64,000 bases of DNA, taken from assembly GCA_039916425.1 (NCBI GenBank), contig JBDSLK010000180.1, forward strand, positions 2,383 through 66,382, read 5' to 3'. Positions 20,956 through 41,744 of the stretch are shown in pieces. A program made the position numbers and the translations under genes. The notes under the pieces were generated by a model that was not told the DNA's origin, ran no database searches, and saw only the letters and a program-made list of their open reading frames with translations. Source of the DNA: Nocardioides sp. GTDB lineage: Bacteria > Actinomycetota > Actinomycetes > Propionibacteriales > Nocardioidaceae. The number at the start of each line of letters is the position of its first letter. Position 1 is the first letter of the stretch.

Positions 20956-23184
20956 CTATCCGGTCACCCCGGAGCCGATCGCCGGGTTGTCGGTGAAGAA
21001 GCCGTCGATCCCCGCGCGCAGGAAGACCCGCAGCTCGCCCGCCAGGTCGCCGGGCGCGTTGGGGTCACTGCTGCTACGGAACTGCAGCGGAAGGAACTGG
21101 TTCTCGACGCGGAAGGTGTAGGGGTGGACGACCAACCCGGCACGATGGGCGTCGCCGATGACCTCCGTAGGCTGGAGCAAGCGCCCGTCCGTCGCGCGCG
21201 GGATCAGCTGGTCCTTGCAGGCGCCCAGGCCATCGGCGTACGTCGCCACCTCCTCGAGGCCCGCCCGCGTGACCAGGTCGGCGTACCGCCTCGGGTCGCC
21301 GGCGGCGACCAGGTCGTACGGCGCTCCGCTGCACCCGGTCAGCTGCACGAGCGGGAAGTCGGTGACCTCGTCGAGCTCGCGGAGGTTGCCGGTCTCGAAG
21401 CTCTGGAGGAAGACCGCGTCCTCATCGTCGTACCCGTTGGCCGCGAGCGTGGCCAACAGCGGCTCCTCGAGGGAGAGGCCCAGGCCGTCGAAGTACGTCG
21501 GGTGCTTGGTCTCGGGGTAGACCCCGACCGGGGCTCCGTCGCAGGTGTGGGAGTGCCGGGCGAGGTCGAGGACCTCGTCGAACGTCGGCACGGCGTAGAG
21601 TCCGTTGAACTGCGCGTTCTTGGGTCGGATGCCCGGGATCCGCTCGACCGCGCGGAGCGTCTTCAGCTCGGCGAGGGTGAAGTCCTCGGTGAACCAACCC
21701 GTGAGCGCGACGCCGTCGATGGTCTTGGTCGTCCGGCGGTCGGCGAACGCGGGTCGGCTGCCGACGTCGGTGGTGCCACCGATCTCGTTCTCGTGGCGGG
21801 CGACCAGCACGCCGTCCTTGGTGGAGACCAGGTCGGGCTCGATGTAGTCGGCACACGCCAGGATCGCCTGCTCGTAGGACGCCAGGGTGTGTTCGGGCCG
21901 GGTGCCGCTCGAGCCGCGGTGGCCGATGACCAGGGCGCCACCGGCGTCCGTAGCCGGGGCGCGAGGCAGGTCGAGCACGATCATCTCGGTGTCGTCCGGG
22001 GTGCCCGGCACCCGCGCGTCGTCGCCGGGGTAGTTGTTGTCGTTGGCGACCAGGATCCGACCGTCTCGCAGTCCGACCACCGTCTCGACCGAGACCATGG
22101 GGAACGAGAAGGGGTCGGCCACGCCGTAGGCGCCGGGTGACGTGGTGGTGCCGATGCCGGCGGGGTTGGCGATCCGGAGCAGGTCGACGACCAGGGTCTT
22201 CTCGACGAAGCCGTCGGCGTCGGCGTCGGCGAGGTCGATCTGGTAGAGGCGCTTGATGACGGCGGCCGGCCCGTCGAAGTTGTCGCGCTCGATGAGGATC
22301 AGCTTGTCGTGACGTACGGTGAACGCGTCACCGACGACGTTGGTGGCCTCGTCGACCTGGTACTGCCAGGTCCGCCCGGTGTAGGCGCGAGCACGGGTGT
22401 CGAACTCGTAGACGTAGCGACGCCGCCGGTCGGCATCGTCGAGGAAGGCGCCCTCCACGATCGGGTAGAGATAGCGCCGGTTGGGTGAGGCGGCCATCGC
22501 CTCGAACCCGCGGCTGGCGGGGACTCGCGGCTTCTCGGTGCCGAGGCCGGGGTTCTGCGGCGACTTGCCGCCGACGAACTCGATGGGAGCCTCGAGCACG
22601 CGGCCGTCGCTGCTCACGTGCACCAGGAAGGGCCCGAACTCCTCGCCGATCCAGAAGGTGCCGTCGCCGGCTCGCACCAGGGACTCGATGTCGAAGTCGG
22701 CGCCCGTGAGGAGCCGCTCGGGGGTCTGCTCGTTGACGAGCGGGAAGGGGACGCGGCGGTCGGGGTCGCGCAGCGAGATGAACCGCTCCACCTCGATGTC
22801 CCCGCTACCACCGTCGGCGGTCTCCCAGTCCGGCCGGACGAGGTAGAGCCTCAACAGGAAGTCGGCAGAGTTGCCCTTGGTGCCGAACCCGTTGTCGGGC
22901 TGGGCCCAGAACGTGCCGTCCTTGTTCTCCACCATGGCAGAGAAGCCCGGGACGACCTGGCCGGGAAACGGCCCGGTCCGGCCGTTGCCAGGTGAGGCCT
23001 GGGCGCCGGAGGGCGGTCCGGGGGCCAGGAAGTCCGCCGACAGCGAGGCGCGCGCGACGAGCGTGGGGGCGCTGGCGCGCCCGTGGTGGTCGGGCGGCGA
23101 GGCGGTCGCCGACGAGGGCACCGCGAGGGCGCCGCCGGCCAGTGCCAGGCCGAGCAGGGGGATGGTCCGATGAGGCGAGATCAT
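20956..23184 (-). CDS. Secreted fusion of an esterase-like phytase (beta-propeller) domain and a glycerophosphodiester phosphodiesterase
   Basis: Signal peptide. QPDNGFG, FDIESL, GEEFGP, SRGFEAM, LIERDN, NDNNYP (phytase-like). IGHRGSSG..PEHTL, YIEPD, VARHE, FFTD (GDPD). Confidence 0.9.
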   Translation of the reverse strand: MISPHRTIPLLGLALAGGALAVPSSATASPPDHHGRASAPTLVARASLSADFLAPGPPSGAQASPGNGRTGPFPGQVVPGFSAMVENKDGTFWAQPDNGFGTKGNSADFLLRLYLVRPDWETADGGSGDIEVERFISLRDPDRRVPFPLVNEQTPERLLTGADFDIESLVRAGDGTFWIGEEFGPFLVHVSSDGRVLEAPIEFVGGKSPQNPGLGTEKPRVPASRGFEAMAASPNRRYLYPIVEGAFLDDADRRRRYVYEFDTRARAYTGRTWQYQVDEATNVVGDAFTVRHDKLILIERDNFDGPAAVIKRLYQIDLADADADGFVEKTLVVDLLRIANPAGIGTTTSPGAYGVADPFSFPMVSVETVVGLRDGRILVANDNNYPGDDARVPGTPDDTEMIVLDLPRAPATDAGGALVIGHRGSSGTRPEHTLASYEQAILACADYIEPDLVSTKDGVLVARHENEIGGTTDVGSRPAFADRRTTKTIDGVALTGWFTEDFTLAELKTLRAVERIPGIRPKNAQFNGLYAVPTFDEVLDLARHSHTCDGAPVGVYPETKHPTYFDGLGLSLEEPLLATLAANGYDDEDAVFLQSFETGNLRELDEVTDFPLVQLTGCSGAPYDLVAAGDPRRYADLVTRAGLEEVATYADGLGACKDQLIPRATDGRLLQPTEVIGDAHRAGLVVHPYTFRVENQFLPLQFRSSSDPNAPGDLAGELRVFLRAGIDGFFTDNPAIGSGVTG

Positions 23185-23299: not shown

Positions 23300-24060
23300 G
23301 TGGTGCTCACCGCGAAGTTGCGGTTCCTGACGTAGGTGACGAACCGAGGTGAGGCCGGGTCGGTGACGTCGTACGCCGTCACGCCTCCCACGCGCCCGAC
23401 CGCGAGCGCACCTGGGCCCGGTGGAGGACGACGACTGCGACCGCATTGGCGCCTCCTGGATCGTCACGTAGGCCTTCTTGGAATGCTGGTCGACCGCGAG
23501 GTACTCGCAGGCTCGCGGCGACGGCGTCTGCCGACTCCACGACCGCGACGGATCCCGCGGGGGTGGACGGTGTAGTCCTCGGCCGGCTTGCCCGCGTCTG
23601 CCACCACGGCCCGGGTGCCGTCCGGGGTGATCGTCACCATGTCCGGCTGCGCGCCGACCCGGACCGCCCCGGAGGCGGACCCGTCTGCACCGGCGTCGAG
23701 GAAGACCAACCAGCCCTCGTCGGTCTTCGGGACCGACTCGACGCCCACGACACCAAGGCCGTCCTCCCGCACGGCGACCGAGTTGGCCACCGCCCCTACC
23801 GGGACCACGGAGCCGTCGGCCGACGACACCCCGACCGTCTGGAGGTCGAGGAGCTTCGTCGGGGCAGTCGCGTCCGCCACGTCGAGGACCACCAGGTGCT
23901 GGGCGTCGGCATAGTGCTCGACGACCTCCGCGCCGACGCGTCGAAGATGCCGGTCGAGCACATGGCCAGCGACAACAGGGCCGGCGGCAGCCAGCAAACC
24001 GCGGGTGGACAGTGGACGACCCGCCCGTGGCGGCGGCGCGGGTCCCGGTGGCAAGAGGGG
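23300..24060 (-). pseudogene. Fragmented choice-of-anchor I (alkaline-phosphatase-associated beta-propeller) gene
   Basis: Pieces in different frames: STGIFDAS/AEVVEHY; ANSVAVREDGLGVV...VRVGAQPDMVTITPDGTRAVVA; EP/EYLAVDQHSKKAYVTIQEA/NAVAVV; RVGGVTAYDVTDPASPRFVTYVRNRNF. Frameshifts and large internal deletions. Confidence 0.75.
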
Positions 24061-24117
24061 TACGTGGTGTGCCACGCAGGCACTGAGCCCGGATCGTTGG
24101 GCCAACCAGCGGTTTCT

Positions 24118-24161
24118 GTTCGCGTCCGGTTCACCCAGCCAGGCCTCCTCGTTCAGCGACG
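24118..24161 (+). promoter_or_regulatory. PHO box array upstream of pstC
   Basis: GTTCGCGTCCG GTTCACCCAGC (11-nt gap) GTTCAGCGACG. The second unit closely matches the Streptomyces GTTCAYYYRSG-type consensus. Confidence 0.75.
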
Positions 24162-24227: not shown

Positions 24228-25241
24228 TTGACCACTCTGCCCACCACCCCGCACGACGTCGGGGAGGCCGTTCCTCGCGCCGTCTCCCGCAAGGGGACCG
24301 GCGCCGATGCGGTGTTCGAGCACGGGGCCCGCGCCGTCGGTGCCTCGGTGCTCGTCATCACCGGCGGAGTGGGTCTGTTCCTCGCCTGGCAGGCCTACCC
24401 GACGCTGCAACGCTACGGCTGGAGCTTCTTCACCGAGTCGCAGTGGCAGCCCGACGAGGACGTCATCGGCATCGCTGCCGTGCTGACCGGCACCGTCTCG
24501 GTCGCGCTGGTTGCGATGGCTATCGCCTTCCCGCTGGCCCTCCTGACAGCCCTGTACATCAGCGAGTACGCACCGGCCCGTTCCAAGTCGACGCTGGTCT
24601 CCCTCGTGGACCTGATGGCCGCGATCCCCTCCATCGTCTACGGGCTCTGGGGCTTCTTCCTCGTGATGCCCTACGCGGCCGGCATGGCCCGCTGGCTCCA
24701 GCAGCACTTCGGCTGGATCCCGGTCTTCGCCGTCAACGACACCGACCCGAACGCTGCGGTGTGGGACACCAGTCGCTACGTCTCGAGCGCCTTCTGCGCC
24801 GGGATCGCGGTGGCGATGATGGTGATGCCGATGGCGTGCGCGGTCATGCGTCAGGTGTTCTCCCAGACCCCGGTCGGCGAGAAGGAGGCCGCGCTCGCAC
24901 TCGGGGCCACCCGCTGGGGCGTGGTGCGCTCGGTCGTGCTCCCGTTCGGGCGCGGCGGCATCATCGGCGGGACGATGCTCGGCCTGGGGCGGGCGCTGGG
25001 CGAGACGATCGCCGTGGTGCTCATCGTGTCGCCGGCCTTCGAGATCAAGCCGCGCATCCTGGAGATCGGGACGTCGACCGTGAGCTCGCTCATCGCCGGC
25101 CGCTTCGGCGAGGCGAGCGAGGCCCAGCTCTCGGCGCTGCTCGCGGCCGGCTTCGTGCTCTTCGTGATCACCCTCGCGGTCAACACCGTCGCCGCGGTCG
25201 TGGTCAACCGCAGCCGCTCCGGTGCCGGGACGGATGCCTGA
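24228..25241 (+). CDS. pstC: Phosphate ABC transporter permease PstC
   Basis: ALYISEYAP, DLMAAIPSIVYGLWG, EAALALGATRW, LGLGRALGETIAV. TTG start. Confidence 0.95.
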   Translation: MTTLPTTPHDVGEAVPRAVSRKGTGADAVFEHGARAVGASVLVITGGVGLFLAWQAYPTLQRYGWSFFTESQWQPDEDVIGIAAVLTGTVSVALVAMAIAFPLALLTALYISEYAPARSKSTLVSLVDLMAAIPSIVYGLWGFFLVMPYAAGMARWLQQHFGWIPVFAVNDTDPNAAVWDTSRYVSSAFCAGIAVAMMVMPMACAVMRQVFSQTPVGEKEAALALGATRWGVVRSVVLPFGRGGIIGGTMLGLGRALGETIAVVLIVSPAFEIKPRILEIGTSTVSSLIAGRFGEASEAQLSALLAAGFVLFVITLAVNTVAAVVVNRSRSGAGTDA

Positions 25242-26425
25242 TGACCACCACCGCAGAGACTGGGTCGGCTCGTCGGTCCGACGCACCCCTCGGCGGCACC
25301 TTCTTGCCGCAGTACGACGACGACGCACCCCCGGCGCTCCCGCGGGCGTCGCTGGGGCGGCCCAGCCCCGACGAGCGCTTCGCCCGGGTCGGGTCGTGGC
25401 TGGCCGCGTTCGCCCTCGCCTGGCTGGTGACCCAGCGGCTGCTGCCGCTCGCGGGCGTGCCGTGGTTGCTGGTGGCCTGGTTCGGCCTCGGCCTCGTGGT
25501 CACCGCCGTGACCGCCGGCATGACCGACGGGGTGACCGCGGTCAAGGATCGCGTGGCCGAGTCCTTGGTGACGGGGGCTGCCCTGCTGGTCGGCGCCGCC
25601 CTGGTGAGCACCCTGGTGTTCGTGGCGATCCGCGGCTGGCGGCCGCTGATGAACCTGAACTTCCTCACCGCCGACATGAGCGGGGTCGGGCCCAAGGACG
25701 GCTTCGTCACCGGCGGCATCCTGCACGCGATCACCGGTTCGCTCATCGAGCTCGGGATCGCCCTGGCCATCACCCTGCCGCTCGGCATCGGCACCGCGGT
25801 GTTCATGACCGAGGTCGGCGGGCGGTTCGCGCGGATCGTCCGCACCGTCGTCGAGGCAATGACCGCACTGCCCTCGATCGTGGCCGGACTCTTCATCTAC
25901 ACCGTGCTCATCGTCGCGCTGGGCTACCCGCGGTCGGGGTTGGCGGCGTCCCTGGCCATCGCGGTGATGATGCTGCCGATCATCGCCCGCGCCGCCGACG
26001 TCGTGCTCCGCGTCATCCCGAGCGGCCTTCGCGAGGCCAGCCTGGCCCTCGGCGCGAGTCGGTGGCGCACGGTGTGGCACGTCGTCCTGCCCACCGCGAG
26101 ACCCGGCCTCGCGACCGCGGTGATCCTCGGAGTGGCCCGGGGCGTCGGCGAGACCAGCCCCGTCCTGCTCACCAGTGGGGCTGCGGCCTTCCTGGTCACC
26201 GACCCGACCGACGGGGTGATGAACTCCCTGCCGCTGTTCATCTACTCCAACGTCCGCAGTGGCGAGCCCAACGCCATCGCCCGGGCCTTCGCGGCCGCAC
26301 TCGTGCTCGTCGCCCTCGTGCTCGCCCTCTTCGTCGCCGCCCGCCTGCTCGCGCGTCCGCGCAGCAACCGCCCGAGCCTGCACCACCGCCTACGCAGCGC
26401 CTACCCGTTCGGAGCCCACCGGTGA
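25241..26425 (+). CDS. pstA: Phosphate ABC transporter permease PstA with an extra N-terminal TM region
   Basis: GGILHAITGS, ALPSIVAGLF, REASLALGASRW, GVARGVGETSP. TGATG overlap with pstC. Confidence 0.95.
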   Translation: MTTTAETGSARRSDAPLGGTFLPQYDDDAPPALPRASLGRPSPDERFARVGSWLAAFALAWLVTQRLLPLAGVPWLLVAWFGLGLVVTAVTAGMTDGVTAVKDRVAESLVTGAALLVGAALVSTLVFVAIRGWRPLMNLNFLTADMSGVGPKDGFVTGGILHAITGSLIELGIALAITLPLGIGTAVFMTEVGGRFARIVRTVVEAMTALPSIVAGLFIYTVLIVALGYPRSGLAASLAIAVMMLPIIARAADVVLRVIPSGLREASLALGASRWRTVWHVVLPTARPGLATAVILGVARGVGETSPVLLTSGAAAFLVTDPTDGVMNSLPLFIYSNVRSGEPNAIARAFAAALVLVALVLALFVAARLLARPRSNRPSLHHRLRSAYPFGAHR

Positions 26426-28095
26426 ACCGCCCACTTCGTGCCCTCGTCGCGTTCCTGCTCTCCCTCAGCTGCGTGCTCGCGATGCCCGGGACGGCCTCCG
26501 CGACCGTCTACGCGCAGATCGAGGGCACCGGCTCGACCTGGTCGGAGCTGATCGTGCAGCAGTGGATCGCCGACGTCGACTCCAACGGCATGAAGGTCGT
26601 CTACACCGGTGGCGGCTCGTCGAAGGGCCGCAAGGACTTCTCCCAGGACAGCACCGACTTCGCCATCTCGGAGATCCCCTACCAGGGTGTCGATGAGCAG
26701 GGCAACACCGACACCAGCAACGGCCGGGACTTCGCCTACCTGCCCATCGTGGCGGGCGGCACCGCCTTCACCTACCAGCTCAAGATCGGCAACGAGCTGG
26801 TGCGCAACCTGCGTCTGTCCGGCGACACCATCTCGAAGATCTTCACGAACCAGATCACCAACTGGAACGACCCGGCGATCGCCGCCGACAACAACGGACG
26901 GTCCTTCCCGTCCCTGGCCATCACCCCGGTAGTGCGCTCGGACGGGTCGGGTACGACGGCCCAGTTCACCACCTGGATGGACCGGCAGTTCCCCGACATC
27001 TGGCGTCCCTTCTTCGGTCAGGCCGGGTTGACCTCCTACTACCCACGCGAGGGGCGAGCCATCGGTCAGGCCGGCTCGGACCAGGTGATGAACACCATCG
27101 CCGGGTTCGCCGGCAACGGCACGATCGGGTACGTCGAGTACTCCTACCCGGTCAACAAGGACTACCCGGTCGTCAAGGTGCTCAACCAGGCCGGCTACTA
27201 CGTCGAGCCGACGCAGTACAACGTGGCCGTCGCGCTGACCAAGGCACGCATCAACCAGGACAAGTCCTCTCCGCTCTACCTCACCCAGGAGCTGGACGGG
27301 GTCTACACCAACGCGGACCCGCGGGCCTACCCGATCTCGTCGTACTCCTACATGATCGTGCCGACCGGGGCCACGGACCCCCGGATGACGACCGCCAAGC
27401 GACAGACGCTCGCCGACTTCATGTACTACTCGCTGTGCGCCGGGCAGACCAAGGCAGGCCCCTACGGCTACTCGCCGCTGCCGCTCAACCTGGTGCGGGC
27501 CGGGTTCGAGCAGCTCGCCAAGCTCAAGGCCGCCGACCCGGCCGTCGACCTGACCGACCGCGAGGTCACCTCGTGCAACAACCCGACCTTCGTGGCCGGT
27601 GACCTGTCGAAGAACCACCTCGCCGAGATCGCTCCCCAGCCGGCCGTCTGCGACGAGCAGGGGGAGGGACCATGCGGCAGCGAGACCGGCGCCAACGACC
27701 CAGCGCCCGAGGGTGATCCCGCCGCGCCGGAGGAGCCCCAGCCCTCCGCGGGCGGCGGCTCCGGCGGCGGCTCGGTCGGCGGGGGCCAAGCCGGTGGCGT
27801 AGGTGGGAACGCCGCCGGTGCCAGTGGTCGGGGCAGCGACGGAGGCGCGACGCAGCCGACGGATCCAGGGCCATCGCCGTCGATCGACCCCGCGACCGGG
27901 GTGGAGCAGCCGGTCGCCGCGAGCGGGTCCTCCGACGTCGTGATCTACGCCAACCCCACCGAGCTCGCGGCGGAGCGCAGCGTCGACCGGAGGACCTTCG
28001 GGTGGCTCGCGGTGCTCGAGCTGCTCGCGCTCGTCCTCGTGCCCGGCCTCTATGTCGCGTCGCTGCGCCGCCGCCCCCGTGGCGGTGTCCGATGA
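26422..28095 (+). CDS. pstS: PstS phosphate-binding protein with SPI signal, Gly/Pro linker and C-terminal TM anchor
   Basis: GTGSTW, GGGSSKG, DFAISE, RSDGSGTT, IGYVEYSY, AYPISSYSY. No lipobox. C-terminal hydrophobic helix plus RRRPR. Confidence 0.9.
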   Translation: MNRPLRALVAFLLSLSCVLAMPGTASATVYAQIEGTGSTWSELIVQQWIADVDSNGMKVVYTGGGSSKGRKDFSQDSTDFAISEIPYQGVDEQGNTDTSNGRDFAYLPIVAGGTAFTYQLKIGNELVRNLRLSGDTISKIFTNQITNWNDPAIAADNNGRSFPSLAITPVVRSDGSGTTAQFTTWMDRQFPDIWRPFFGQAGLTSYYPREGRAIGQAGSDQVMNTIAGFAGNGTIGYVEYSYPVNKDYPVVKVLNQAGYYVEPTQYNVAVALTKARINQDKSSPLYLTQELDGVYTNADPRAYPISSYSYMIVPTGATDPRMTTAKRQTLADFMYYSLCAGQTKAGPYGYSPLPLNLVRAGFEQLAKLKAADPAVDLTDREVTSCNNPTFVAGDLSKNHLAEIAPQPAVCDEQGEGPCGSETGANDPAPEGDPAAPEEPQPSAGGGSGGGSVGGGQAGGVGGNAAGASGRGSDGGATQPTDPGPSPSIDPATGVEQPVAASGSSDVVIYANPTELAAERSVDRRTFGWLAVLELLALVLVPGLYVASLRRRPRGGVR

Positions 28096-30758
28096 CGCGG
28101 CGCACCGCCCGGGCGACAGCGGCCGCCCTGGTCGGCCTCCTCCTCGCGGTGTCGATGACCACCCTGGCCGGTGCCGCGCCCGCGGAGACGGGCAACGCGC
28201 CGGGTGGGGTCGACAAGGACGGCTACTCCGCTACGAGGGCACTGACCCGGGTCTTCACGAATCCGGACGGGTCGACGTATGAGTTCCCGCCCAACACGGT
28301 GACCGTCACCGCCGACCACACCCAGGACCTGCGCGGCCGCCAGCGGATCACGATCGGCTGGAGCGGAGCCCAGCCCAGCGCGGGCCGGGCGAGCAATCCC
28401 TACGGCGAGAACGGCCTGCAGCAGGAGTACCCCGTCGTCATCCTCCAGTGCCGCGGGACCGACGACCCGGCCCTGCCGGTCGCCGAGCAGCTGTCGCCGT
28501 CGACCTGCTGGACGGCGTCGGTGGCGCAGCGCTCGCAGATCGCCCGCGGCGACGCCGAGGCCGCGTGGGTGCACGACCTGGACGCGCCCGTCGAGGCGAA
28601 GGCGCGACTGTTCGGCGTCGCTCCGTTCCCCGGCGCCGACCTCTGCCCCGGGGCCGACGCGGACCCCTATTTCACGCACCTGACGCCGTACGCCGCCCAC
28701 AACGGCACGGTCTTCCCTGCGTGCAACGCCGTCCAGATGCCGCCGGAGGCCGCGGTCGGTGCCGCGTTCCCGCCCAACGAGGTGGCGGCGTTCACCGATC
28801 TCGACGGCACCGGTGCGGTCCAGTTCGAGATCCGCAGCGAGGTCGAGAACGAGTCGCTGGGTTGTAGCGATCAGGTGGCGTGCTCGATCGTGGTCGTGCC
28901 CATCAACGGCCTGAGCTGCGACCAGCCGGCCGAGCCGGCAACGATCGCTGACGAGGCGTGCCGGCGCGGAGGCCGCTTCGAACCGGGCTCCAGCAACTTC
29001 GCGAACCAGGGTGTCGACCAGGCCGTGTCACCGGTGCTGTGGTGGTCGGCCTCCAACTGGAAGAACCGCTTCTCGATCCCGATCACCATGGGCTTGCCGC
29101 CCGACACCTGCGACGTCCTCGATCCCCGGCCGCCTACCGGGTTCTACGGCTCCGAGCTGCTGGCCCAGGCGGCGTTGCAGTGGTCGCCGTCGTACTGCCT
29201 GGATAAGAAGCGCTTCAAGTTCCAGCTCAACCAGATGTCGGACGACGCGGGGTTCTCGCTCATGGAGTCCGGCGGGGGCCCGGCTGCCGTCGTGTCCTCC
29301 GAGCACAAGACCGAGGGCGCGGACCCGGTCGGCTATGCACCGACCGCCGTCACCGGCTTCGCGGTCGGCTACGTGATCGACCGTCCCGACAACGCCGGGG
29401 AGTACGGCCAGCTCCGGCTGAACGCGCGGTTGATCGCCAAGCTGCTTACCCAGTCCTACCTCGGCTCGGACCTCGGTCGTGGCCACCCGGGGATCGCCGG
29501 CAACCCGCTGGCGATCATGAACGACCCCGAGTTCATCGAGCTCAACCCGGGACTGAGCCTGATCACCCAGGAGGCCGGCGCGACGGTGCTGTCGCTGTCG
29601 AACTCCTCCGACGTGATGGACCAGCTCACCGACTACCTCGCCCACGACAAGACCGCGATGGAGTGGATCGACGGCAAGCCGGACCAGTGGGGCATGAAGG
29701 TCAACCCGGCGTACAAGAAGATCAAGCTGCCGCGCCCCGAGTGGCCCCTGCTCGACGAGTTCGTGCCGCAGACCGAGAACGTCTGCCGCCAGGAGAACCC
29801 GGCGGTCTACTTCACCCAGCTCGCGGCCCCGGTCACCACCATGCGCAAGATCGCCGAGGCGCTCCTCGACGCCTGGCCCAACGTGCAGACGCGCTGCGAG
29901 TTCGACCAGTCCACGCAGCTCTACAAGCTGGGACGGATCGACCGGCAGTCGTTCGGCGCCCGCTTCATGCTCGGTCTGATCAGTCTCGGGGACGCGCAGC
30001 GCTACGGCCTCCGCGCGGCGGCGCTCGAGACCGCGAAGGGCGAGTACGTCGCGCCCAGCGACGGTTCGCTGAAGGCCGCGGTCGCGCTCTCCGAGCAGAA
30101 GAAGGAGACCGGCCCCTTCGTGCTGGACCAGGCCACGGTCCGTAGGGAGGCGGGCGCCTACCCCGGCACGATGGTGGTCTACACCGCTGCCCTGCTGCGC
30201 AACCTCGCGCAGGAGGACGCGGACAAGATCGCCCAGTTCGTCGAGGTGTCCACCACCGAGGGGCAGGAGCAGGGCACGGGCAACGGTGAGCTCCCGGCCG
30301 GCTTCGTGCCCATCCTCGAGCAAGGCCCCACCAAGAAGCTCTACCAGGCGGCGCAGGACGTGGCGGCCGCCATCAAGGCACAGACCCCCGCGCCCTCGGA
30401 GGCGCCGAGCCCGGACGGGCCGGCAACTCCCACCCCCGTGATCCCCGACGTCGACCCTGACGACCTCGGCGGAGCAGGCACGCCCACTACGGACACCCCC
30501 GCCGCACCGACGCCGACGGACGAGCCCACGGCCAAGCCGACGGACAAGCAGACCGACAAGCAGCCGGACAAGAAGGCCGACAGGTCGACCGACGGGGCCA
30601 CGACCCCGGCTGTCGATGCCGCCCCGATGCCGCCCACGCAGGCGGTCAGCTCCGGCCTCGCGGGCGGGCTCCTCCCCGGCCTGCTGCTGCTGGGTCTGTT
30701 CGGGATGGCGATCGCCAGCGTGCTGCGCCTGCTGGCCCGCGGTGGAGGACGTCCGTGA
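28092..30758 (+). CDS. Large secreted membrane-anchored protein: neocarzinostatin/Ig-like N-domain, degenerate PstS-fold domain, Pro/Thr linker, TM
   Basis: TVTVTADHTQDLRGRQRITIGWSG...ILQC...TDLDGTGAVQF...GCSDQVACSIVV, then YGSEL, YAPTAVTG, LRLNARLIAKLL, NDPEFIELNP, YVAPS, AYPGTMVVY colinear with PstS. Confidence 0.8.
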   Translation: MTRRTARATAAALVGLLLAVSMTTLAGAAPAETGNAPGGVDKDGYSATRALTRVFTNPDGSTYEFPPNTVTVTADHTQDLRGRQRITIGWSGAQPSAGRASNPYGENGLQQEYPVVILQCRGTDDPALPVAEQLSPSTCWTASVAQRSQIARGDAEAAWVHDLDAPVEAKARLFGVAPFPGADLCPGADADPYFTHLTPYAAHNGTVFPACNAVQMPPEAAVGAAFPPNEVAAFTDLDGTGAVQFEIRSEVENESLGCSDQVACSIVVVPINGLSCDQPAEPATIADEACRRGGRFEPGSSNFANQGVDQAVSPVLWWSASNWKNRFSIPITMGLPPDTCDVLDPRPPTGFYGSELLAQAALQWSPSYCLDKKRFKFQLNQMSDDAGFSLMESGGGPAAVVSSEHKTEGADPVGYAPTAVTGFAVGYVIDRPDNAGEYGQLRLNARLIAKLLTQSYLGSDLGRGHPGIAGNPLAIMNDPEFIELNPGLSLITQEAGATVLSLSNSSDVMDQLTDYLAHDKTAMEWIDGKPDQWGMKVNPAYKKIKLPRPEWPLLDEFVPQTENVCRQENPAVYFTQLAAPVTTMRKIAEALLDAWPNVQTRCEFDQSTQLYKLGRIDRQSFGARFMLGLISLGDAQRYGLRAAALETAKGEYVAPSDGSLKAAVALSEQKKETGPFVLDQATVRREAGAYPGTMVVYTAALLRNLAQEDADKIAQFVEVSTTEGQEQGTGNGELPAGFVPILEQGPTKKLYQAAQDVAAAIKAQTPAPSEAPSPDGPATPTPVIPDVDPDDLGGAGTPTTDTPAAPTPTDEPTAKPTDKQTDKQPDKKADRSTDGATTPAVDAAPMPPTQAVSSGLAGGLLPGLLLLGLFGMAIASVLRLLARGGGRP

Positions 30759-31687
30759 CGGCCACCCTGCCTGAGGAGAAGCGTCGGCTGCTGCCCGCAC
30801 GGCTCTCGCGCCCGGCCCGGCCCGCCAGGACCGCCCGCGCGGCCCCGCCACCGGCACAGGGCGCGCCGGCGGTGCTCTCCACCTGCTTCGCGATGGTCGC
30901 TCTCATCTGCCTGTGGACGGCCGCGCAGCTGCTGGTGCTGGGTGGGCTCGCGCACGAGCGGACCCAGGACCTGCTCTACCGGGAGTTCCGCACCCAGCTG
31001 GCCGGCGCCACCGCCCCGATCGGCCCCGTCGTCCCCGTCGGCGACCCCGTCGCGGTGCTGACAGTGCCGAGGCTCGGGCTCCAGGAGGTCGTCGTCGAGG
31101 GCACCGCGTCCGGTGACACGCTCGCCGGGCCGGGACACCTGCGCAACACCGCGCTCCCCGGCCAGGAGGGCACGTCGGTGCTGATGGGCCGGGCCGCCAC
31201 CTACGGCGGACCCTTCGGAGACCTCGCCGCCCTCAGCCCCGGAGACCGGTTCACCGTCGTGGTGGCGCAGGGCACCGTGAGGTTCACGGTGATCGGCGTC
31301 CGGCACGCCGGAGACCCCCTGCCCGCGCCTCGCGAGCCGGGCCGGGCGCGCCTCACGCTGGTCACTGCCGAGGGTGCGGGCCGGTTGTCGGCGCTCACCC
31401 CCGACACGGCGCTCTTCGTCGACGCCGAGACCAAGAAGGCACTGGCGGCTCCCCCGGGACTGCCCGCGGTGGTGCCCGACTCGGAGCTGACGATGGCGAC
31501 GGACCCCGCCGCGATCCCGCTGCTCACCCTCTATCTCGCGCTGCTGCTGGCGCTGACCCTCGGCGTCGTGGCCGCCCGGCAGCGCTGGTCGGCAGCGCTG
31601 GTCTGGGTGGTGGCCGCTCCGGTGGCCCTGGCGCTGTCGTGGCAGACCACCGACGTGGTGATGCGGCTGCTGCCCAACCTGATCTGA
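30755..31687 (+). CDS. Sortase-fold membrane protein with catalytic residues substituted (pseudo-sortase)
   Basis: N-terminal TM; LTVPRLGL..VVVEGT...GPGH...LPGQEGTSVLMGRAATYGGPF..L..GD...RLTLVTA. Two additional C-terminal TM helices. Confidence 0.88.
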   Translation: MTATLPEEKRRLLPARLSRPARPARTARAAPPPAQGAPAVLSTCFAMVALICLWTAAQLLVLGGLAHERTQDLLYREFRTQLAGATAPIGPVVPVGDPVAVLTVPRLGLQEVVVEGTASGDTLAGPGHLRNTALPGQEGTSVLMGRAATYGGPFGDLAALSPGDRFTVVVAQGTVRFTVIGVRHAGDPLPAPREPGRARLTLVTAEGAGRLSALTPDTALFVDAETKKALAAPPGLPAVVPDSELTMATDPAAIPLLTLYLALLLALTLGVVAARQRWSAALVWVVAAPVALALSWQTTDVVMRLLPNLI

Positions 31688-31761: not shown

Positions 31762-33336
31762 ATGTTCTCAAAGAAGTTGACTTCCGTCATGGCGACGGGC
31801 GGCGTCGTCGCAGCGGCGCTCGCGCTCTCCGCCGCGCCGGCCTCTGCCGTCTACACAGCGGACCCCGATGACACCACCATCGTGACGACCTCGACCGACC
31901 TCTACGGAGTCGGCTCGGACACCAGTCAGAACGCGATCCTCCGCCTCGCCAACGGCTTCAACGCGACCTCGCCGCCGGCGAGAATCGCCACCTACGCCGC
32001 CACCGGTGGCGGCGACATCCCGTTGCCCGGCGGGGCGCTCATTCCTCGCCCGAACGGCTCCGGGGCCGGCAAGTCGAAGCTGTACGGCGCCGGTAACGTG
32101 CCCGAGATCGACTTCGCTCGTTCGTCCTCGGCTCAGAGCCCCGCGGAATCGTCGGCCGGGCTGCAGTCGTTCCCCTTCGCCCTCGACACCCTCGTGATGG
32201 CGGTTTCCAACTCTGCCCCGTCCAACGCGCCCGCCTCGCTCACCCCCGCCCAGATCGTGGGCATCTACAACGGCACCTTCACCAACTGGAGCCAGGTCGG
32301 CGGCAACGCGGGAGTCATCGCCCCGAAGATCCCGCAGGCCGGATCCGGCACCCGGAGCTTCTTCGTCGCTCAGCTCCAGGCCGCCAACGGCGGTGTCGCC
32401 GTCACGCTCGCCGGCTCCGTCACCGACGTGCAGGAACACGACGACACCACGATCAAGTCGGACCCGAACGCGGTCGCGCCCTTCTCGCAGGGACGCGCCG
32501 GACTGCTCGGATCGACCCTGCGCCTCGAGGGCGGGTTCAGCGCCAACCGGGCGCTCTACAACGTCGTTCGCGCCGGTGACGTCAGCACCCCGAACGTCCA
32601 GGCCGCCTTCGGCAGCACCGGCTTCGTCTGCTCGGCGACGGCCAAGCCCCTCATCGAGGCGGCCGGCTTCAAGCAGCTCTTCCCGCCGTCCAAGGGCGGC
32701 GTCTGCGGCCAGCCCACGCAGAGTGCGACGAGCAACTTCATCGTCGACTCGGTGTCGACCACGACGGCGGTCACCGCGTCTGTCGCCACCGCCACATCGG
32801 CCCGCATCGTGGCCAAGGTCGCTGGCTCTACCGCCCCGAGCGGAACCTACGCCTTCTACGAGGGCGCCACGCTGCTCCAGGCGGGTGTGCCGCTCGTCTC
32901 GGGGCAGGCCACGCGCATCCAGCCCGCCGCTCCGGGCACGCACACCTACCGTGCCGTCTTCACCCCCGCCGCCAACTCGCCGTTCACCGCCTCGGAGGGT
33001 TCGGGTGCTGTCACCATCGCCAGCACCGGGGGCACCCCGGCCGCCAAGGCGGCCTCGACGATCAAGGAGTCCTTCGCCAAGACCGTCAAGGCCGGCAAGC
33101 GGGCCAAGGGCACGGTCACAGTGACGCTCAAGGGGGTCGCCACCAAGGCGACCGGCAAGATCAAGATCAAGAAGGGGAGCAAGACCCTGGTCACCAAGTC
33201 GCTGTCCGGCGGCAAGGTCACCGTCAAGCTGCCCCGGCTGCAGAACGGCAAGAACAAGCTGAAGATCGTCTGGGGCGGTGACGCCGCCGGCCTGCCCGGC
33301 AAGCTGGCGTTCACCATCAAGCAGATCACCGGCTGA
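31762..33336 (+). CDS. PstS-like periplasmic-binding-fold protein with Ig-like domain and Lys-rich C-terminal beta domain
   Basis: Strong RBS (GAGGAG/AAGGA), SPI signal (ASA), [39 protein letters not shown]. Big_3-like STTTAVT...GTYAFYEG...GTHTYRAVF. Lys-rich tail. Confidence 0.85.
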
Positions 33337-33433: not shown

Positions 33434-34264
33434 ATGACCACCGACACCACCCGGACCGACCGCGTGGCCCGCGAGGGTCCCGGCGACTCGCTGGCCACCA
33501 TCGAGGCCAGCGACATCACCGCGTGGTTCGGCTCGCACAAGGTCCTCGACCGGGTATCCCTGACCATGCGGGCCGGTGAGATCACCGCCCTGATCGGCCC
33601 GTCCGGCTGCGGCAAGTCGACGTTCCTGAGGATCCTCAACCGGATGCACGAGCTGGTGCCGTCAGCGCAGCTGGCCGGTGAGGTGCGCCTGGACGGCGCC
33701 GACATCTACGACCCCGCACGCCGGCTCATCGACGCCCGGCGCGCGATCGGCATGGTGTTCCAGAAGCCGAATCCGTTCCCCTCGATGTCGATCGAGGAGA
33801 ACGTGCTCGCCGGCCTCCGGCTGACGGGGACCAAGGTGGCGCGCTCCGGCAGAGCCGAGCTCGTCGAGTCGTGCCTGCGCAAGGGAGGACTCTGGAACGA
33901 GGTCAAGGACCGGCTGGACGCGCCTGGTGGCGGTCTCTCCGGTGGTCAGCAGCAACGCCTCTGCATTGCGCGTTCGCTGGCGGTGAAGCCGCGCGTGCTG
34001 CTGATGGACGAGCCCTGCTCGGCCCTCGATCCCACCTCGACCAGGGTCATCGAGGAGACCATGCACGACCTGGCGCGCGACGTGACGATCGTGATCGTGA
34101 CCCACAACATGCAGCAGGCCGCGCGGGTCTCGGACCGGTGTGCCTTCTTCCTGGCGGCGCAGGGGACCCCGGGCGTCATCGTGGAGCACGGGGAGACCAG
34201 TGCGATGTTCGGCAACCCCCAGGACCGGCGGACCGGTGACTACGTCAGCGGTCGCTTCGGCTGA
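33434..34264 (+). CDS. pstB: Phosphate ABC transporter ATP-binding protein PstB
   Basis: [65 protein letters not shown]. Confidence 0.96.
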
Positions 34265-34569: not shown

Positions 34570-35652
34570 GTGAAGCGAAAGCACAACTTGGTTCTCGTGG
34601 GCATGCTCGGGATGGCCATCACCCTCAGCGCATGTGGGGGGAGCGACTCAGGAGACACCGCCGGGGACTCCGGCAGCAGCGCCGGCAAGATCGGGGTGAT
34701 CCTGCCCGACACCAAGTCCTCGGTGCGGTGGGAGAGCGCCGACCGGCCGGCCCTCGAGGCGGCCTTCGAGGAGGCCGGCGTCGAGTACACGATCCAGAAC
34801 GCCGAGGGCGACGCGGACAAGATGACCACGATCGCGGACAGCATGATGACCGAGGGTGTCACGGTCCTTGCGATCGTCAACCTCGACTCGGAGTCCGGCG
34901 CGGCCATCCAGGAGAAGGCGGCCTCGCAGGGCATCAAGACCATCGACTACGACCGCCTCACCCTGGGCGGCACCGCCGAGGCCTACGTGTCCTATGACAA
35001 CAACAAGGTCGGTGCCCTGCAGGGCCAGGGCCTCGCTGACTGCCTGGGCGACAAGCCGGCCAACCTGGTCTACCTCAACGGCGCGCCGACCGACAACAAC
35101 GCCACTCTCTTCGCGGCAGGCGCGCACAGCGTCCTCGACGAGGTCAGCACCTACAAGCAGGTCGCCGAGCAGGCCGTGCCGGACTGGGACCCGGACCAGG
35201 CCGTGACGATCTTCGAGCAGCTCTACACCCAGGCCGGTGGCAAGGTCGACGGTGTCTACGCCGCCAACGACGGCCTCGCCGGCGCGACGATCTCCATCCT
35301 GCAGAAGAACGAGGTCAACGGCACCGTGCCCGTGACCGGTCAGGACGCCACGGTCGAGGGTCTGCAGAACGTGCTGTCGGGTGACCAGTGCATGACGATC
35401 TACAAGTCGGCCAAGGCGGAGGCCGGTGCGCTCGCCGACACCGCGATCGCGCTTGCCAAGGGCGACACCCCGGAGACCAACGGCACCACCACCGACGAGA
35501 CGGGCGGCCGCGACGTGCCGTCGGTCCTCCTCGACCCGGTCTCCATCACCAAGGAGAACGTCAGCGACGTCATCGACGACGGTGGCCAGAGTGCTGATGA
35601 CGTGTGCGCCGGAGACTTCGCCGCTGCGTGCGCCGATGCGGGCATCTCCTGA
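34570..35652 (+). CDS. xylF: Sugar (xylose-type) ABC transporter substrate-binding lipoprotein
   Basis: Lipobox LSAC, ILPDTKSSVRWE, IDYDRL, AANDGLA, VTGQDA. Adjacent to xylAB. Confidence 0.88.
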   Translation: MKRKHNLVLVGMLGMAITLSACGGSDSGDTAGDSGSSAGKIGVILPDTKSSVRWESADRPALEAAFEEAGVEYTIQNAEGDADKMTTIADSMMTEGVTVLAIVNLDSESGAAIQEKAASQGIKTIDYDRLTLGGTAEAYVSYDNNKVGALQGQGLADCLGDKPANLVYLNGAPTDNNATLFAAGAHSVLDEVSTYKQVAEQAVPDWDPDQAVTIFEQLYTQAGGKVDGVYAANDGLAGATISILQKNEVNGTVPVTGQDATVEGLQNVLSGDQCMTIYKSAKAEAGALADTAIALAKGDTPETNGTTTDETGGRDVPSVLLDPVSITKENVSDVIDDGGQSADDVCAGDFAAACADAGIS

Positions 35653-35706
35653 TCGACCCTGCCCGGTCCGCGGAAGCGCGAACCGGGCGAAGTAGCACCT
35701 CTCGGT

Positions 35707-35738
35707 GACGCCCGGGCTGGGACCCCGGCCCGGGCGTC
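35707..35738 (+). terminator. Stem-loop after the binding-protein gene, followed by a T-rich tract
   Basis: GACGCCCGGGC...GCCCGGGCGTC then CGCCGTTTTGTT. Confidence 0.65.
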
Positions 35739-35744
35739 CGCCGT

Positions 35745-35765
35745 TTTGTTCACCCGAACAACAAT
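35745..35765. promoter_or_regulatory. Second ROK-type operator candidate upstream of the ATPase gene
   Basis: TTTGTT-CACCCGAAC-AACAAT, same TGTT-N9-AACA geometry as 34490..34510. Confidence 0.6.
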
Positions 35766-35784
35766 TACGTAGGGAGTGCCCCCA

Positions 35785-36561
35785 ATGACCGAGCCCCTGC
35801 TCGCGCTGCGTGGAGTCAACAAGAGCTTCGGCGTCGTGCATGTCCTGCACGACGTGGACTTCGCCGTCTACCCCGGCCAGGTCACCGCCTTGGTCGGTGA
35901 CAACGGCGCCGGCAAGTCGACGCTGGTCAAGGTCGTCGCCGGCATCTACGGCCGCGACAGCGGCGACTACCTCTTCGAGGGCAACCCCGTCCACGCGAAC
36001 GGTCCCAAGGAGATCGCCGATCTCGGTGTCGAGGTGGTCTACCAGGACCTAGCGCTGTGCGACAACCTCGACATCGTCCAGAACATGTTCCTCGGTCGCG
36101 AGGAGAAGCGCGGGCTCGCCCTCGACGAAGCGACCATGGAGGCCCGCGCCCGCGACACCCTGGGCTCCCTCTCGGTGCGCACGGTGACCTCCGTGCGCCA
36201 GCACGTGGCCAGCCTGTCCGGTGGTCAGCGCCAGACCGTGGCGATCGCCAAGGCCGTCTTGTGGAACAGCAAGATCGTGCTGCTCGACGAGCCCACGGCG
36301 GCCCTCGGCGTGGCCCAGACCCGCCAGGTCCTCGACCTCGTGCGTCGCCTCGCCGACCGCGGCCTCGGCGTCGTGCTCATCTCTCACAACCTCGGCGACG
36401 TGTTCGAGGTCGCCGACCGGATCACCGTGCTCTATCTCGGCCGGGTGGCGGCTGACGTCGCCACGAAGGACGTCACCACCAACCAGGTCGTCGAGCTGAT
36501 CACTGCTGGACGCTCCGGGAGTCTCGGCATCGCCGAGGACCCCGCGACCGCGACCGTCTGA
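35785..36561 (+). CDS. xylG: Sugar ABC transporter ATP-binding protein (single NBD)
   Basis: GDNGAGKST, LSGGQRQ, LLDEPTAALG, ISHN. Confidence 0.9.
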   Translation: MTEPLLALRGVNKSFGVVHVLHDVDFAVYPGQVTALVGDNGAGKSTLVKVVAGIYGRDSGDYLFEGNPVHANGPKEIADLGVEVVYQDLALCDNLDIVQNMFLGREEKRGLALDEATMEARARDTLGSLSVRTVTSVRQHVASLSGGQRQTVAIAKAVLWNSKIVLLDEPTAALGVAQTRQVLDLVRRLADRGLGVVLISHNLGDVFEVADRITVLYLGRVAADVATKDVTTNQVVELITAGRSGSLGIAEDPATATV

Positions 36562-36572
36562 AGGGACACATC

Positions 36573-37844
36573 ATGACCGTCGAGATGGACAAGACTGCCG
36601 GATCCGGCAGCGGAGGCTTTGCGGCCGACGACCAGCGGACCAACACGATGGGCTCCGCGCTCACCGCCTACGTCAACCGCCTGCGTGGCGGTGACATGGG
36701 CTCGCTCCCGGCGATCCTTGGCCTGGTCATGCTCTACGTCGTGTTCGGCCTGGCCAGCGACAGCTTCCTCTCGTTGCTCAACCAGGCCAACCTCGTGACC
36801 CAGGCCGGCTCCATCTGCGTGCTGGCCATGGGCCTGGTCTTCGTGCTGCTCCTCGGCGAGATCGACCTGTCTGCAGGATTCACCGGTGGCGTCTCGGCTG
36901 CCTTCACGTCGCTGGCCATCGTCGACCACGGCCAGTCCTGGTGGGTGGCGGTCCTGGTCGGTATGGTCGTCGGCTGTGCGATCGGCTTCGTGATCGGCCT
37001 CCTCGTCGCTTATCTCGGCGTCCCGTCGTTCGTGGTCTCGCTGGCGTTCTTCCTGGCCCTGCAAGGCGTGAGCCTCAAGCTCATCGGCGCCGGCGGATCG
37101 GTGCCCGTCCGTGATGAGGTGATCCGCGGGCTCGCGATCAAGAACGTGCCTCCGGTCGCGGGCTGGATCGGCGCCGTCGTCGTCGTCGCGATCTTCGCCG
37201 GGCTCTCGCTGATGCGGCACCGCACCCAGACCGCCCAGGACCTGCAGCGCCCGCCGTTCAGCCTGGTGCTGGTGCGGATCGCCGCCTTCGCCGTGATCGC
37301 CCTCGGTCTGGTCGCGCTGCTGAACCGCAATCGCAGCCTCAACCCCAACTTCCCGATCCAGGGCATCCCGTGGGTCCTGCCCGTCGTGGTGGTGCTCCTC
37401 CTGCTCTGGACCTTCGTGCTGGGACGCACGGCCTACGGCCGCCACCTGTACGCCGTCGGCGGCAACGCCGAGGCCGCCCGTCGGGCCGGCGTCGACGTGC
37501 GTCGCATGAAGGTCTCCGCCTTCATGATCTGCTCGACGATGGCCGCGATCAGCGGCGTGCTCGCGGCGTCGTACAGCGGCAAGGTCTCGCCGTCGTCGGG
37601 CGGTGGCAACGTGCTGCTCTACGCCGTGGGGGCCGCGGTCATCGGCGGCACCAGCCTCTTCGGCGGCCGCGGCCGCGCGCTCGACGCCGTGATCGGCGGG
37701 GTCGTGATCGCGACCATCGCCAACGGTCTCGGACTCCTCAACCAGGCGAGCTACATCAACTACCTGGTCACCGGTGGGGTGCTCCTCCTCGCTGCGAGCG
37801 TCGACGCCATCTCGCGGCGTCGGCGGTCCGCTGCCGGCGTCTAG
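36573..37844 (+). CDS. xylH: Sugar ABC transporter permease
   Basis: GEIDLSAG, YAVGGNAEAARRAGV, AAVIGGTSLFGGRG. Confidence 0.9.
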   Translation: MTVEMDKTAGSGSGGFAADDQRTNTMGSALTAYVNRLRGGDMGSLPAILGLVMLYVVFGLASDSFLSLLNQANLVTQAGSICVLAMGLVFVLLLGEIDLSAGFTGGVSAAFTSLAIVDHGQSWWVAVLVGMVVGCAIGFVIGLLVAYLGVPSFVVSLAFFLALQGVSLKLIGAGGSVPVRDEVIRGLAIKNVPPVAGWIGAVVVVAIFAGLSLMRHRTQTAQDLQRPPFSLVLVRIAAFAVIALGLVALLNRNRSLNPNFPIQGIPWVLPVVVVLLLLWTFVLGRTAYGRHLYAVGGNAEAARRAGVDVRRMKVSAFMICSTMAAISGVLAASYSGKVSPSSGGGNVLLYAVGAAVIGGTSLFGGRGRALDAVIGGVVIATIANGLGLLNQASYINYLVTGGVLLLAASVDAISRRRRSAAGV

Positions 37845-37854
37845 TCATCTCGGG

Positions 37855-39081
37855 ATGAGTCAGCAGAGGACGGCCGGGCTCGGGACCAACCAGGAGGCCG
37901 TACGACGGCACAACCTCGGGACCCTGCTGCGCCACGTCCACGGCGCCGGCCAGCTCTCCCGCGCCGAGCTGACGACCGCGATGGGCCTGAACCGCAGCAC
38001 GATCGCCGGCCTGGTCGCCGAGCTCGGCGTCCTCGGGGTGACCCGGCGGGCCGTGCCTGCCAGTTCGCGCACGGGCGCGGGCCGGCCCTCGGCCGGGGTC
38101 AGCCTCGCGCACGACGGGCCCTACGTGATCGCCGTCGACCTCGGCGTCGACCGGGCCGTCGTGGCCGCAGTCGCCCTGGGCGGCGACGTCCTCCGACGGG
38201 CGCAGGCGCCGGTCGACGACGGCGGTGAGGCCTGGCAGGTGGGTGCTGCCGTGGCCGGGCTGATCCGTCAGGTCGTCACGGACGTGCCCGCCTCCTCGCC
38301 CCTGGTGGGCATCGGCATCAGCGTGCCCGGCCTGGTCCGGCGCGGCGACGGGCTGATCCGGATGGCCCCCAACCTGGAGTGGACCGACGTGTCGTTCGGG
38401 GGCATCGTGCTCGCGGCCCTCGGGTTGGACATCCCGGTCTCGTTGGCCAACGACGCCAACCTCGGTGCGCTGGCCGAGCACCGCCGGGGGGCGGGCGTCG
38501 GCATCGACGACCTCATCTACATCTCCGGCAACGTCGGCGTCGGTGCCGGCGTCATCGTGGGCGGCGTCCAGCTCGAGGGGGTGGGCGGCTACGCCGGCGA
38601 GATGGGGCACATCAGCTTCAACCCCAACGGACTGCCCTGCCACTGCGGCAACATCGGGTGCTGGGAGACCGAGGTGGGGGCGTACGCCATCGCCGACGCC
38701 ATCTCCTCACCCGAGTCCGGGGCCATCCAGCTGGGTGAGGTCCTCGAGGCCTTCGCCGAGGCGCCGGCGGCGCTACGTCCGGCGGGTACGGCGCTGGGTT
38801 ACGGCCTGGCCAACATCGTCAACGCGTTCAACCCGCAGATGGTGGTGCTCGGGGGGCACCTGGGCTCGCTGTACACCCTGGTGCGCGCCCAGGTCGACGC
38901 CGGCCTGGCCGCGCGCGCCCTGCCCGCTGCCCTGGAGTCCGTCACCGTCTGCCTGCCCGGCCTCGGTGCGGACTCGGTGCTCCTCGGGGCGGCCGAGATC
39001 GCCTTCGAGCCCCTCTTCGTCGACCCGGTCGCTGCCCTCAGCGGGGCGCTCGTCGACGTGGGCTCGCGCCTCGCCGGATGA
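37855..39081 (+). CDS. ROK family transcriptional regulator (Rok7B7-like context)
   Basis: N-terminal HTH (SRAELTTAMGLNRSTI), ANDANLGALAE, GYAGEMGH, CHCGNIGCWE. Confidence 0.92.
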   Translation: MSQQRTAGLGTNQEAVRRHNLGTLLRHVHGAGQLSRAELTTAMGLNRSTIAGLVAELGVLGVTRRAVPASSRTGAGRPSAGVSLAHDGPYVIAVDLGVDRAVVAAVALGGDVLRRAQAPVDDGGEAWQVGAAVAGLIRQVVTDVPASSPLVGIGISVPGLVRRGDGLIRMAPNLEWTDVSFGGIVLAALGLDIPVSLANDANLGALAEHRRGAGVGIDDLIYISGNVGVGAGVIVGGVQLEGVGGYAGEMGHISFNPNGLPCHCGNIGCWETEVGAYAIADAISSPESGAIQLGEVLEAFAEAPAALRPAGTALGYGLANIVNAFNPQMVVLGGHLGSLYTLVRAQVDAGLAARALPAALESVTVCLPGLGADSVLLGAAEIAFEPLFVDPVAALSGALVDVGSRLAG

Positions 39082-39085
39082 GAGC

Positions 39086-40501: not shown

Positions 40502-40515
40502 CGTCGGGGCCGGGA

Positions 40516-41691: not shown

Positions 41692-41715
41692 GGGGGTTCC
41701 TCCCGGTCGTTCTGG

Positions 41716-41744
41716 CGAATTAGTCCATGACATGGACTAATTCG
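41716..41744. promoter_or_regulatory. Perfect palindromic XylR operator between xylA and its divergent ROK regulator
   Basis: CGAATTAGTCCATG-A-CATGGACTAATTCG (14-bp arms). Confidence 0.85.

Follow-up and report, generated by a model that had tools for sequence, protein, structure and literature searches.

What does a protein with the fold of a sortase, and with none of a sortase's catalytic residues, do inside a phosphate-transport operon? The question is posed by a 64,000-nucleotide stretch of Nocardioides sp. DNA (contig JBDSLK010000180.1; the whole stretch is called the window below), in which one gene encodes what we call a pseudo-sortase. Our answer, to which we give a probability of roughly 0.6, is that this protein has no enzymatic role and serves as a membrane subunit of a Pst-type uptake complex, one that is specialised and probably induced by phosphate starvation. 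It is almost certainly catalytically dead and not a transpeptidase, because the catalytic His, Cys and Arg are absent. The gene and the parts of its product are as follows.

30755..31687, + strand: pseudo-sortase, 310 amino acids, PF04203 fold (Pfam, alignment, AlphaFold2 model, hydropathy)
residues ~40–65: N-terminal membrane helix
residues ~96–228: barrel, with R146, A205 and A219 at the His, Cys and Arg sites
residues ~251–304: C-terminal membrane hairpin, after a linker, with the terminus LLPNLI

The reading frame has no internal stop, and its GTG start overlaps the stop of the upstream gene (30755–30758). The Pfam Sortase family matches residues 102–204 with 49 bits, above the cut-off of 26.6, while the top NCBIfam match, the class E sortase family NF033747, scores 56.1 bits and stays under its cut-off of 160. 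From a 142-sequence alignment, AlphaFold2 produced a model with a predicted local distance difference test (pLDDT) score of 96.4 and a predicted template modeling (pTM) score of 0.91, in which one long N-terminal helix leads into a β-barrel that is followed by two C-terminal helices. Three hydrophobic stretches appear in the hydropathy profile, the last of them marginal. The initial annotation had described two extra C-terminal membrane helices in an intact frame, and both are present. Among the Foldseek and VIA matches listed, the best ones are all sortases; the closest VIA match listed is 6IXZ (Z 18.2, root-mean-square deviation (RMSD) 2.6, 157 aligned residues), and the class E sortase SrtE of S. 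avermitilis (5GO5) superposes with a Z of 15.5 and an RMSD of 2.4 over 128 residues.

In a family-profile alignment with SrtE (5GO5/5GO6), the catalytic G-H pair corresponds to G-R146 of the pseudo-sortase, LTLTTC corresponds to LTLVTA205, with Cys replaced by Ala, and the Arg of HRLIVWA falls on A219. The only two cysteines, 44 and 52, lie in the N-terminal membrane helix, leaving none in the barrel. The Tyr of SrtE GHY, which we take to be the conserved strand 3/4 loop Tyr of class E sortases, aligns with Leu129, a position held by Arg in 89 of 120 homologues. The earlier claim of a sortase fold with all three catalytic residues replaced thus stands for the window protein, on this alignment and a confident model. 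The N-terminal anchor expected of a sortase is seen in both hydropathy and model, and the β-barrel fold is there as well; His, Cys and Arg are all missing. Judged by alignment, this protein belongs to the fold but fails all three catalytic residue tests, so it ought not to be classed among the sortase enzymes.

Are these replacements a peculiarity of one strain? Among the best 120 of 974 homologue matches, the His site is Arg in 120/120, the Cys site is Ala, Ser or Gly in 120/120, and the Arg site is Arg in none. A more distant set, the best 150 representatives at 50% identity out of 265 with E up to 1e-30, has Arg (141) or Lys (9) at the His site; Gly, Val and Thr are also tolerated at the Cys site, and Arg183 and Arg199 are conserved too. 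Cys occurs at the catalytic site in 1/150, a chimeric-looking record (P0155) that combines Arg at the His site with Cys and Arg; with an unrelated N-terminus and the C-terminus of an ordinary sortase, we rejected it as a probable chimera. A third set, drawn from genomes, comprises the window gene and members from 98 other loci, 99 in all; it has Arg 94, Lys 2 and His 3 at the His site, Ala in 74/99 and Cys in 0/99 at the Cys site, and a retained catalytic Arg in three, all basal. As a control we used 25 intact sortases from the same genomes, after dropping five wrong-frame extractions, and the three catalytic columns of the joint alignment read H 25/25, C 25/25 and R 23/25. The three members with His are Dactylosporangium proteins (L071, L076, L081) that are nested inside the Arg clade and still lack Cys, so this His is probably a reversion.

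Close homologues with His and Cys, the case that would speak for strain-specific decay, were thus looked for and did not turn up, and the proposed fixation of His to Arg and Cys to Ala became, on the wider view, Arg or Lys in 150/150 with Cys absent save for the chimeric-looking record. For the family as a whole, only the loss of Cys is universal, and basal members keep His, Arg or both. Over 18 hand-picked close pairs, the ratio of nonsynonymous to synonymous substitution rates (dN/dS, Nei-Gojobori) is 0.03–0.40 with a median of 0.26, comparable to the 0.14–0.39 of the operon neighbours. By this measure the gene is under purifying selection and is maintained rather than decaying. With the triad lost phylum-wide and a dN/dS of ~0.26, the idea of a conserved pseudo-enzyme is well supported; the role suggested along with it, as a chaperone, receptor or membrane scaffold, is a hypothesis. 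This is a large family, with 265 clusters at 50% identity for matches with E up to 1e-30, and databases label it 'sortase'; such mislabelled pseudo-sortases inflate sortase counts.

Where did such a protein come from? We searched by profile an even sample of 401 Actinomycetota genomes, eleven of them unpublished (no positive claim rests on those), and found sortases with intact His/Cys/Arg and the same C-terminal hairpin. Eleven of them were aligned, and the triad is kept in 11/11. A hairpin-only profile scored at least 10 bits in 8/11 of these intact sortases, in 0/160 other membrane tails and in 0/220 shuffles. Since a homologous hairpin is present in intact sortases, it was probably there before catalysis was lost, and we rejected the alternative that it was gained together with the loss of activity. 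The added hairpin of the initial annotation is real, down to its LLPNLI terminus, but catalytically intact proteins have one too. The dead proteins fall together on one side of a branch in a quick tree that includes short sortases, with a Shimodaira–Hasegawa-like approximate likelihood ratio test (SH-aLRT) support of 99, and in a tree without outgroup the branch between the dead and the intact three-helix group has a support of 100/100. A joint clade of the two is neither rejected nor shown by the approximately unbiased test (p-AU 0.153).

The order of loss can be read from 80 further matches of a basal-member profile, starting from the intact three-helix relative. These comprise His-Cys-Arg (13), His-Ser/Gly-Arg (8, plus one with a gap), His-Ser (2), Arg-Ser-Arg (12), Arg-Ser (8) and Arg-Ala/Gly (36), and Arg at the His site combined with Cys occurs in 0/80. 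Because there are intermediates with His or Arg and no Cys, and none with Arg and Cys, the simplest order we infer is Cys first, then His, then Arg. The pseudo-sortase would then descend from a three-membrane-helix class E-like sortase in which Cys was lost first. The intact three-helix sortases have a setting of their own: those at L121, L134, L228, L229, L230, L231 and L237 (genomes G077, G199, G105, G357, G186, G346 and G313) adjoin ccmA/ccmB-like heme-export genes in 7/7 loci inspected, and when four such neighbours were run against NCBIfam, ccmA was over the cut-off twice and ccmB-like below it twice.

What remains to be explained is what the dead protein is kept for, and here its neighbours matter. 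Apart from the pseudo-sortase, the operon contains the following features.

24118..24161, + strand: PHO-box-like 11-nucleotide direct repeats, units at 24118 and 24129, a third in phase at 24151; ~100 bp upstream of pstC
24228..25241, + strand: pstC permease (TIGR02138, 256.9 bits, cut-off 196.45)
25241..26425, + strand: pstA permease with an extra N-terminal membrane hairpin (TIGR00974, 211.9 bits, cut-off 193.45)
26422..28095, + strand: PstS with a conserved phosphate site, a long linker and a C-terminal membrane anchor with a conserved tail motif (motifs; 189.5 bits against an NCBIfam cut-off of 205)
28089..30758, + strand: large tail-anchored protein, N-terminal β domain plus PstS fold with an acidic cleft (model, alignment)
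31762..33336, + strand: secreted PstS-fold protein (GSDT type) fused to two immunoglobulin (Ig)-like domains, no membrane anchor (domain matches, alignment)
33434..34264, + strand: pstB ATPase (TIGR00972, 333.7 bits against a cut-off of 343.2; start estimated, open frame from 33278)

The gene order is thus pstC, pstA, tail-anchored pstS, large PstS-fold gene, pseudo-sortase, PstS-Ig gene and pstB, and the stops and starts of the first five genes overlap or abut. PstC and PstA both exceed their NCBIfam cut-offs. An ordinary pst operon lies elsewhere in the same genome, as does one further, intact sortase; the window operon is a second, specialised pst operon. On the other side of the PHO-box-like repeats, and divergent from them, lie a phytase-like/GDPD fusion gene (20956–23184, − strand) and a choice-of-anchor I gene fragment (23464–24105, − strand). 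Phosphate scavenging would fit the former, which we nevertheless rejected as a conserved neighbour, as it occurs in 1/80 loci only. Downstream, 34570–41733 holds a sugar ABC transporter, ROK regulators and xylulokinase-like and xylose-isomerase-like genes, named by eye and ordinary.

The association with this operon is not confined to the window. Neighborhoods were counted in the best 80 of 550 confirmed loci of the species collection, a set that leans towards Nocardioides and in which many loci are cut by contig ends. These clusters contain the large PstS fold in 76, the soluble PstS fold in 68–73, PstS in 71, pstA in 69, pstB in 67 and pstC in 63–65. In the even sample, the pseudo-sortase is found at E 1e-20 in 18/401 genomes. 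A strong match to the operon's PstA subfamily (E up to 3e-35; the next is 4e-18) occurs in exactly the same 18, and a strong match to the large PstS-fold protein (E up to 1e-16) in 16 genomes, all among those 18; we read 17 weaker matches to the latter profile as ordinary PstS. The next-best PstA match, in G335, belongs to an operon that is a complete but very divergent counterpart of this one, its pseudo-sortase being of the His-Ser-Arg type. The gene directly upstream of the pseudo-sortase is the large PstS-fold gene in 62/98 loci; it lies further away in 12/98, and none was called in 10/98. Where basal loci have pstCAB-pstS in inverted orientation or at another place, the pseudo-sortase still has next to it, judged by eye, a gene of the tail-anchored PstS-fold kind or one like it.

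Two side observations concern these related loci. A small gene without a Pfam match lies directly upstream of the operon at L056:2402–2803, L065:652–1044 and about a dozen other loci. In G335, L240:2024–14796 encodes three secreted proteins that end in a PE[SV]P motif, a membrane helix and a basic tail, resembling exosortase-type signals; NCBIfam gave no exosortase-type sorting signal match for these proteins.

The three PstS folds differ in what they appear to bind. With residue roles that we take from E. coli PstS, the phosphate-site motifs of the first PstS are conserved. The large protein, modeled as a β domain and a PstS fold followed by a disordered linker and one membrane helix, has instead Glu356 (81/86), Asp/Glu385 (85/86) and Asp508 (79/86) at the phosphate-site positions and no conserved phosphate-binding Arg, the equivalence of the sites being by motif; its N-terminal β domain has many conserved cysteines. 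From these alignments it is probably a pseudo-PstS, and given its conserved acidic residues and lack of a conserved Arg, its likely ligand is a cation or the basic surface of a protein rather than phosphate. Two conserved motifs, DPxTG and P[TV]xL, mark the tail of the first PstS (27900–28095), whose membrane helix closes with an invariant Pro (84/84); together they suggest a specific membrane partner. Since the tail motif travels with pstCAB, this partner may be the extra PstA hairpin instead of the pseudo-sortase.

How would such an operon be controlled? Excerpts of PMC2275107 give a PhoP-binding consensus of 11-nucleotide repeats, and the tandem repeats at 24118–24161 match it in sequence. 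PHO-box-like pairs stand upstream of pstC in 40/70 loci, compared with 25/1320 random windows (~2%), upstream of the soluble PstS-fold gene in 11/85, and upstream of inner operon genes in 0–1 of 78–95. The genome contains five exact pairs, two of which precede the ordinary pstS and a phoU-like gene (phoU named by eye). As the repeats are enriched upstream of pstC, induction by phosphate starvation is likely. Two more PHO-box-like matches in the window (3587–3603, + strand; 10064–10080, − strand) have no evident link to a phosphate gene, and a sigma-70 promoter scan, uninformative for this organism, found no promoter.

The proposed mechanism is that the pseudo-sortase, once inactive, was retained because its helix bundle and barrel surface were of use. 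With them it would keep the neighbouring tail-anchored large PstS-fold protein at the membrane beside PstC and PstA, and through that protein the three binding-protein folds would be organised to capture phosphate across the wall and pass it to the permease. That the pseudo-sortase works with products of its own operon we hold with good confidence; that the large PstS-fold protein, the most likely candidate, is the direct partner is a tentative assignment. More speculative, and to be held loosely, is a fuller picture of a PhoP-induced phosphate-harvesting apparatus on the cell surface, in which the binding proteins stand outside the wall, carried in many lineages by a WxL donor-strand pilus, and relay their cargo to a dedicated Pst permease, with a base made of a dead sortase and a dead, acidic-cleft PstS that hold tails and sorting signals uncut.

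Several points weigh against a place in a phosphate uptake complex. The PstS and PstB scores just under their NCBIfam cut-offs mean that something other than plain phosphate may be transported. Linked loci supplied the co-occurrence profiles, with 7/18 and 12/16 of the genomes inside the profiles, and kin are not independent, so the independent part of the co-occurrence is only the absence from other genomes. G062 and G186 have a weaker PstA N-terminal hairpin and no pseudo-sortase within the 20 kb read. In 14/98 loci the gene immediately before the pseudo-sortase codes for an LPXTG/LAXTG protein and not for the large PstS fold, and no true gene fusion with the pseudo-sortase was found among the family matches; four long matches considered as fusions look like frameshift artefacts. 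Inter-protein covariation over 74–86 paired loci was uninformative either way, since the PstC-PstA control itself gave no sensible signal.

The LPXTG genes lead to the rival that survives best, a non-cleaving receptor whose barrel binds an LPxT-like motif before a membrane tail, holding an LPXTG protein or the base of a WxL-type pilus at the membrane, or shielding it from active sortases. LPXTG/LAXTG protein genes occur in 21/98 loci in all, and WxL-like and DUF916-like genes are both present in 26/98, often together with LPXTG/LAXTG genes. Within 10 kb, 15/25 WxL candidates have a Pfam match (5 over the cut-off), as do 21/26 for DUF916 (12 over the cut-off); both exceed their cut-offs in three Actinoplanes loci (L085:5668–8324, L096:6726–8397, L098:6544–9197). 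The candidates' Atlas neighbours are WxL clusters at 0.95–0.96, with the family on 14–44% of members. No DUF3324 match was listed at E 0.01 among the 26 chaperone-like candidates, in which DUF7507 and Fn3-like hints were seen. The soluble PstS fold of the window is fused to Ig domains that elsewhere belong to a WxL protein.

Tails give the receptor some further substance. P[TVSFL][ETSDN][LVI] precedes the PstS membrane helix in 49/84, with 2 expected from shuffles, the pattern having been read off the same data; [LMVIF]PxT occurs in 19/84 large proteins, with 5.9 expected; and basal pseudo-sortases end in LPSTL or LPATL. However, the 19 come mostly from one clade, and we rejected LPxT before the large-protein tail as a family-wide signal. 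WxL, DUF916 and LPXTG genes are all missing from the window operon and from most Nocardioides loci (Pfam gave no WxL or DUF916 match among the seven operon proteins of the window), yet the pseudo-sortase is conserved there. This genome, which is 88% complete, yielded no convincing sorting-signal protein, and the motif-binding loop of intact sortases is shortened and altered in the derived clade. We consider a receptor of this kind unlikely.

Next is a repurposed anion site, in which Arg146, His128 and Arg130 would form a putative pocket for phosphate or a phosphoester of a lipid or wall polymer, making the protein a sensor or carrier for the transporter. The phosphate-related gene context would suit it, as would the constraint on the His site in all 150 distant homologues and the conservation of Arg183 and Arg199, but His is tolerated at that site in basal members and the three Dactylosporangium proteins, and His128 is an ordinary sortase motif residue. 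Such a site is improbable. An enzyme with another nucleophile such as Ser is very improbable: Ser does stand at the Cys site of basal members, some of which retain His and Arg, whereas the window protein and most of the 99 members have Ala, Gly, Val and Thr are tolerated, and the barrel has no Cys. The idea that an ordinary sortase gene decayed recently in a single strain, which the names 'sortase' and 'class E sortase' given to relatives in databases might suggest, is refuted by the alignments, the same replacements being found phylum-wide in intact frames with dN/dS well below 1.

The putative non-enzymatic subunit of a Pst-type complex can finally be set beside known systems. With class E sortases (S. 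avermitilis SrtE 5GO5, S. coelicolor SrtE1 5CUW, T. fusca SrtE; NF033747) the pseudo-sortase shares the fold, the N-terminal membrane helix and the motifs GPGH..T.LPGQ.G and YG.PF; unlike them, it lacks His/Cys/Arg, scores below the NF033747 cut-off, and has a C-terminal hairpin and a fixed place in a pst operon. The intact three-helix class E-like sortases (11 sample genomes, e.g. G077, G105, G357) have the same architecture and a homologous hairpin ending LLPxxY/L, but keep the triad, pass the class E cut-off in 2/3 tested, and stand beside ccmA/ccmB-like genes, not pst. Excerpts of PMC11231552 describe a His-Cys-Arg triad as required in every sortase class, with which a conserved dead sortase family contrasts. 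A literature search outside subscription papers found no description of this family or of another natural dead sortase family, and excerpts of PMC8615915 and PMC5817068 do not describe it.

The WxL/DUF916 pilus resembles the related loci in its WxL-like, DUF916-like and LPXTG genes; it differs in that such genes are absent from the window and that no DUF3324 match was listed in the relatives. According to excerpts of a preprint (bioRxiv 10.64898/2026.10.17.759780), WxL/DUF916 pairs build a donor-strand pilus reported in Bacillota only, from one genome per genus, and a pilus of the type of Elr of Enterococcus faecalis is anchored by an active housekeeping sortase; the excerpted main text mentions neither phosphate nor PstS. 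WxL pilus-like genes in Actinomycetota loci therefore lie outside the reported range, and they join this pst cluster in about a quarter of loci.

With PhoP-controlled PstSCAB the window operon shares pstC, pstA, a pstB that scores just under its family cut-off, a PstS with the phosphate-site motifs and PHO-box-like repeats. The dead sortase family marks an apparently unstudied second pst operon with tail-anchored binding proteins in soil and freshwater actinobacteria, and its cultured hosts (Nocardioides, Actinoplanes, Streptomyces, Cellulomonas) make the function directly testable. Unlike PstSCAB, this operon has three PstS folds, two of them C-terminally anchored, an extra hairpin on PstA and a pseudo-sortase, and it coexists with an ordinary pst operon.

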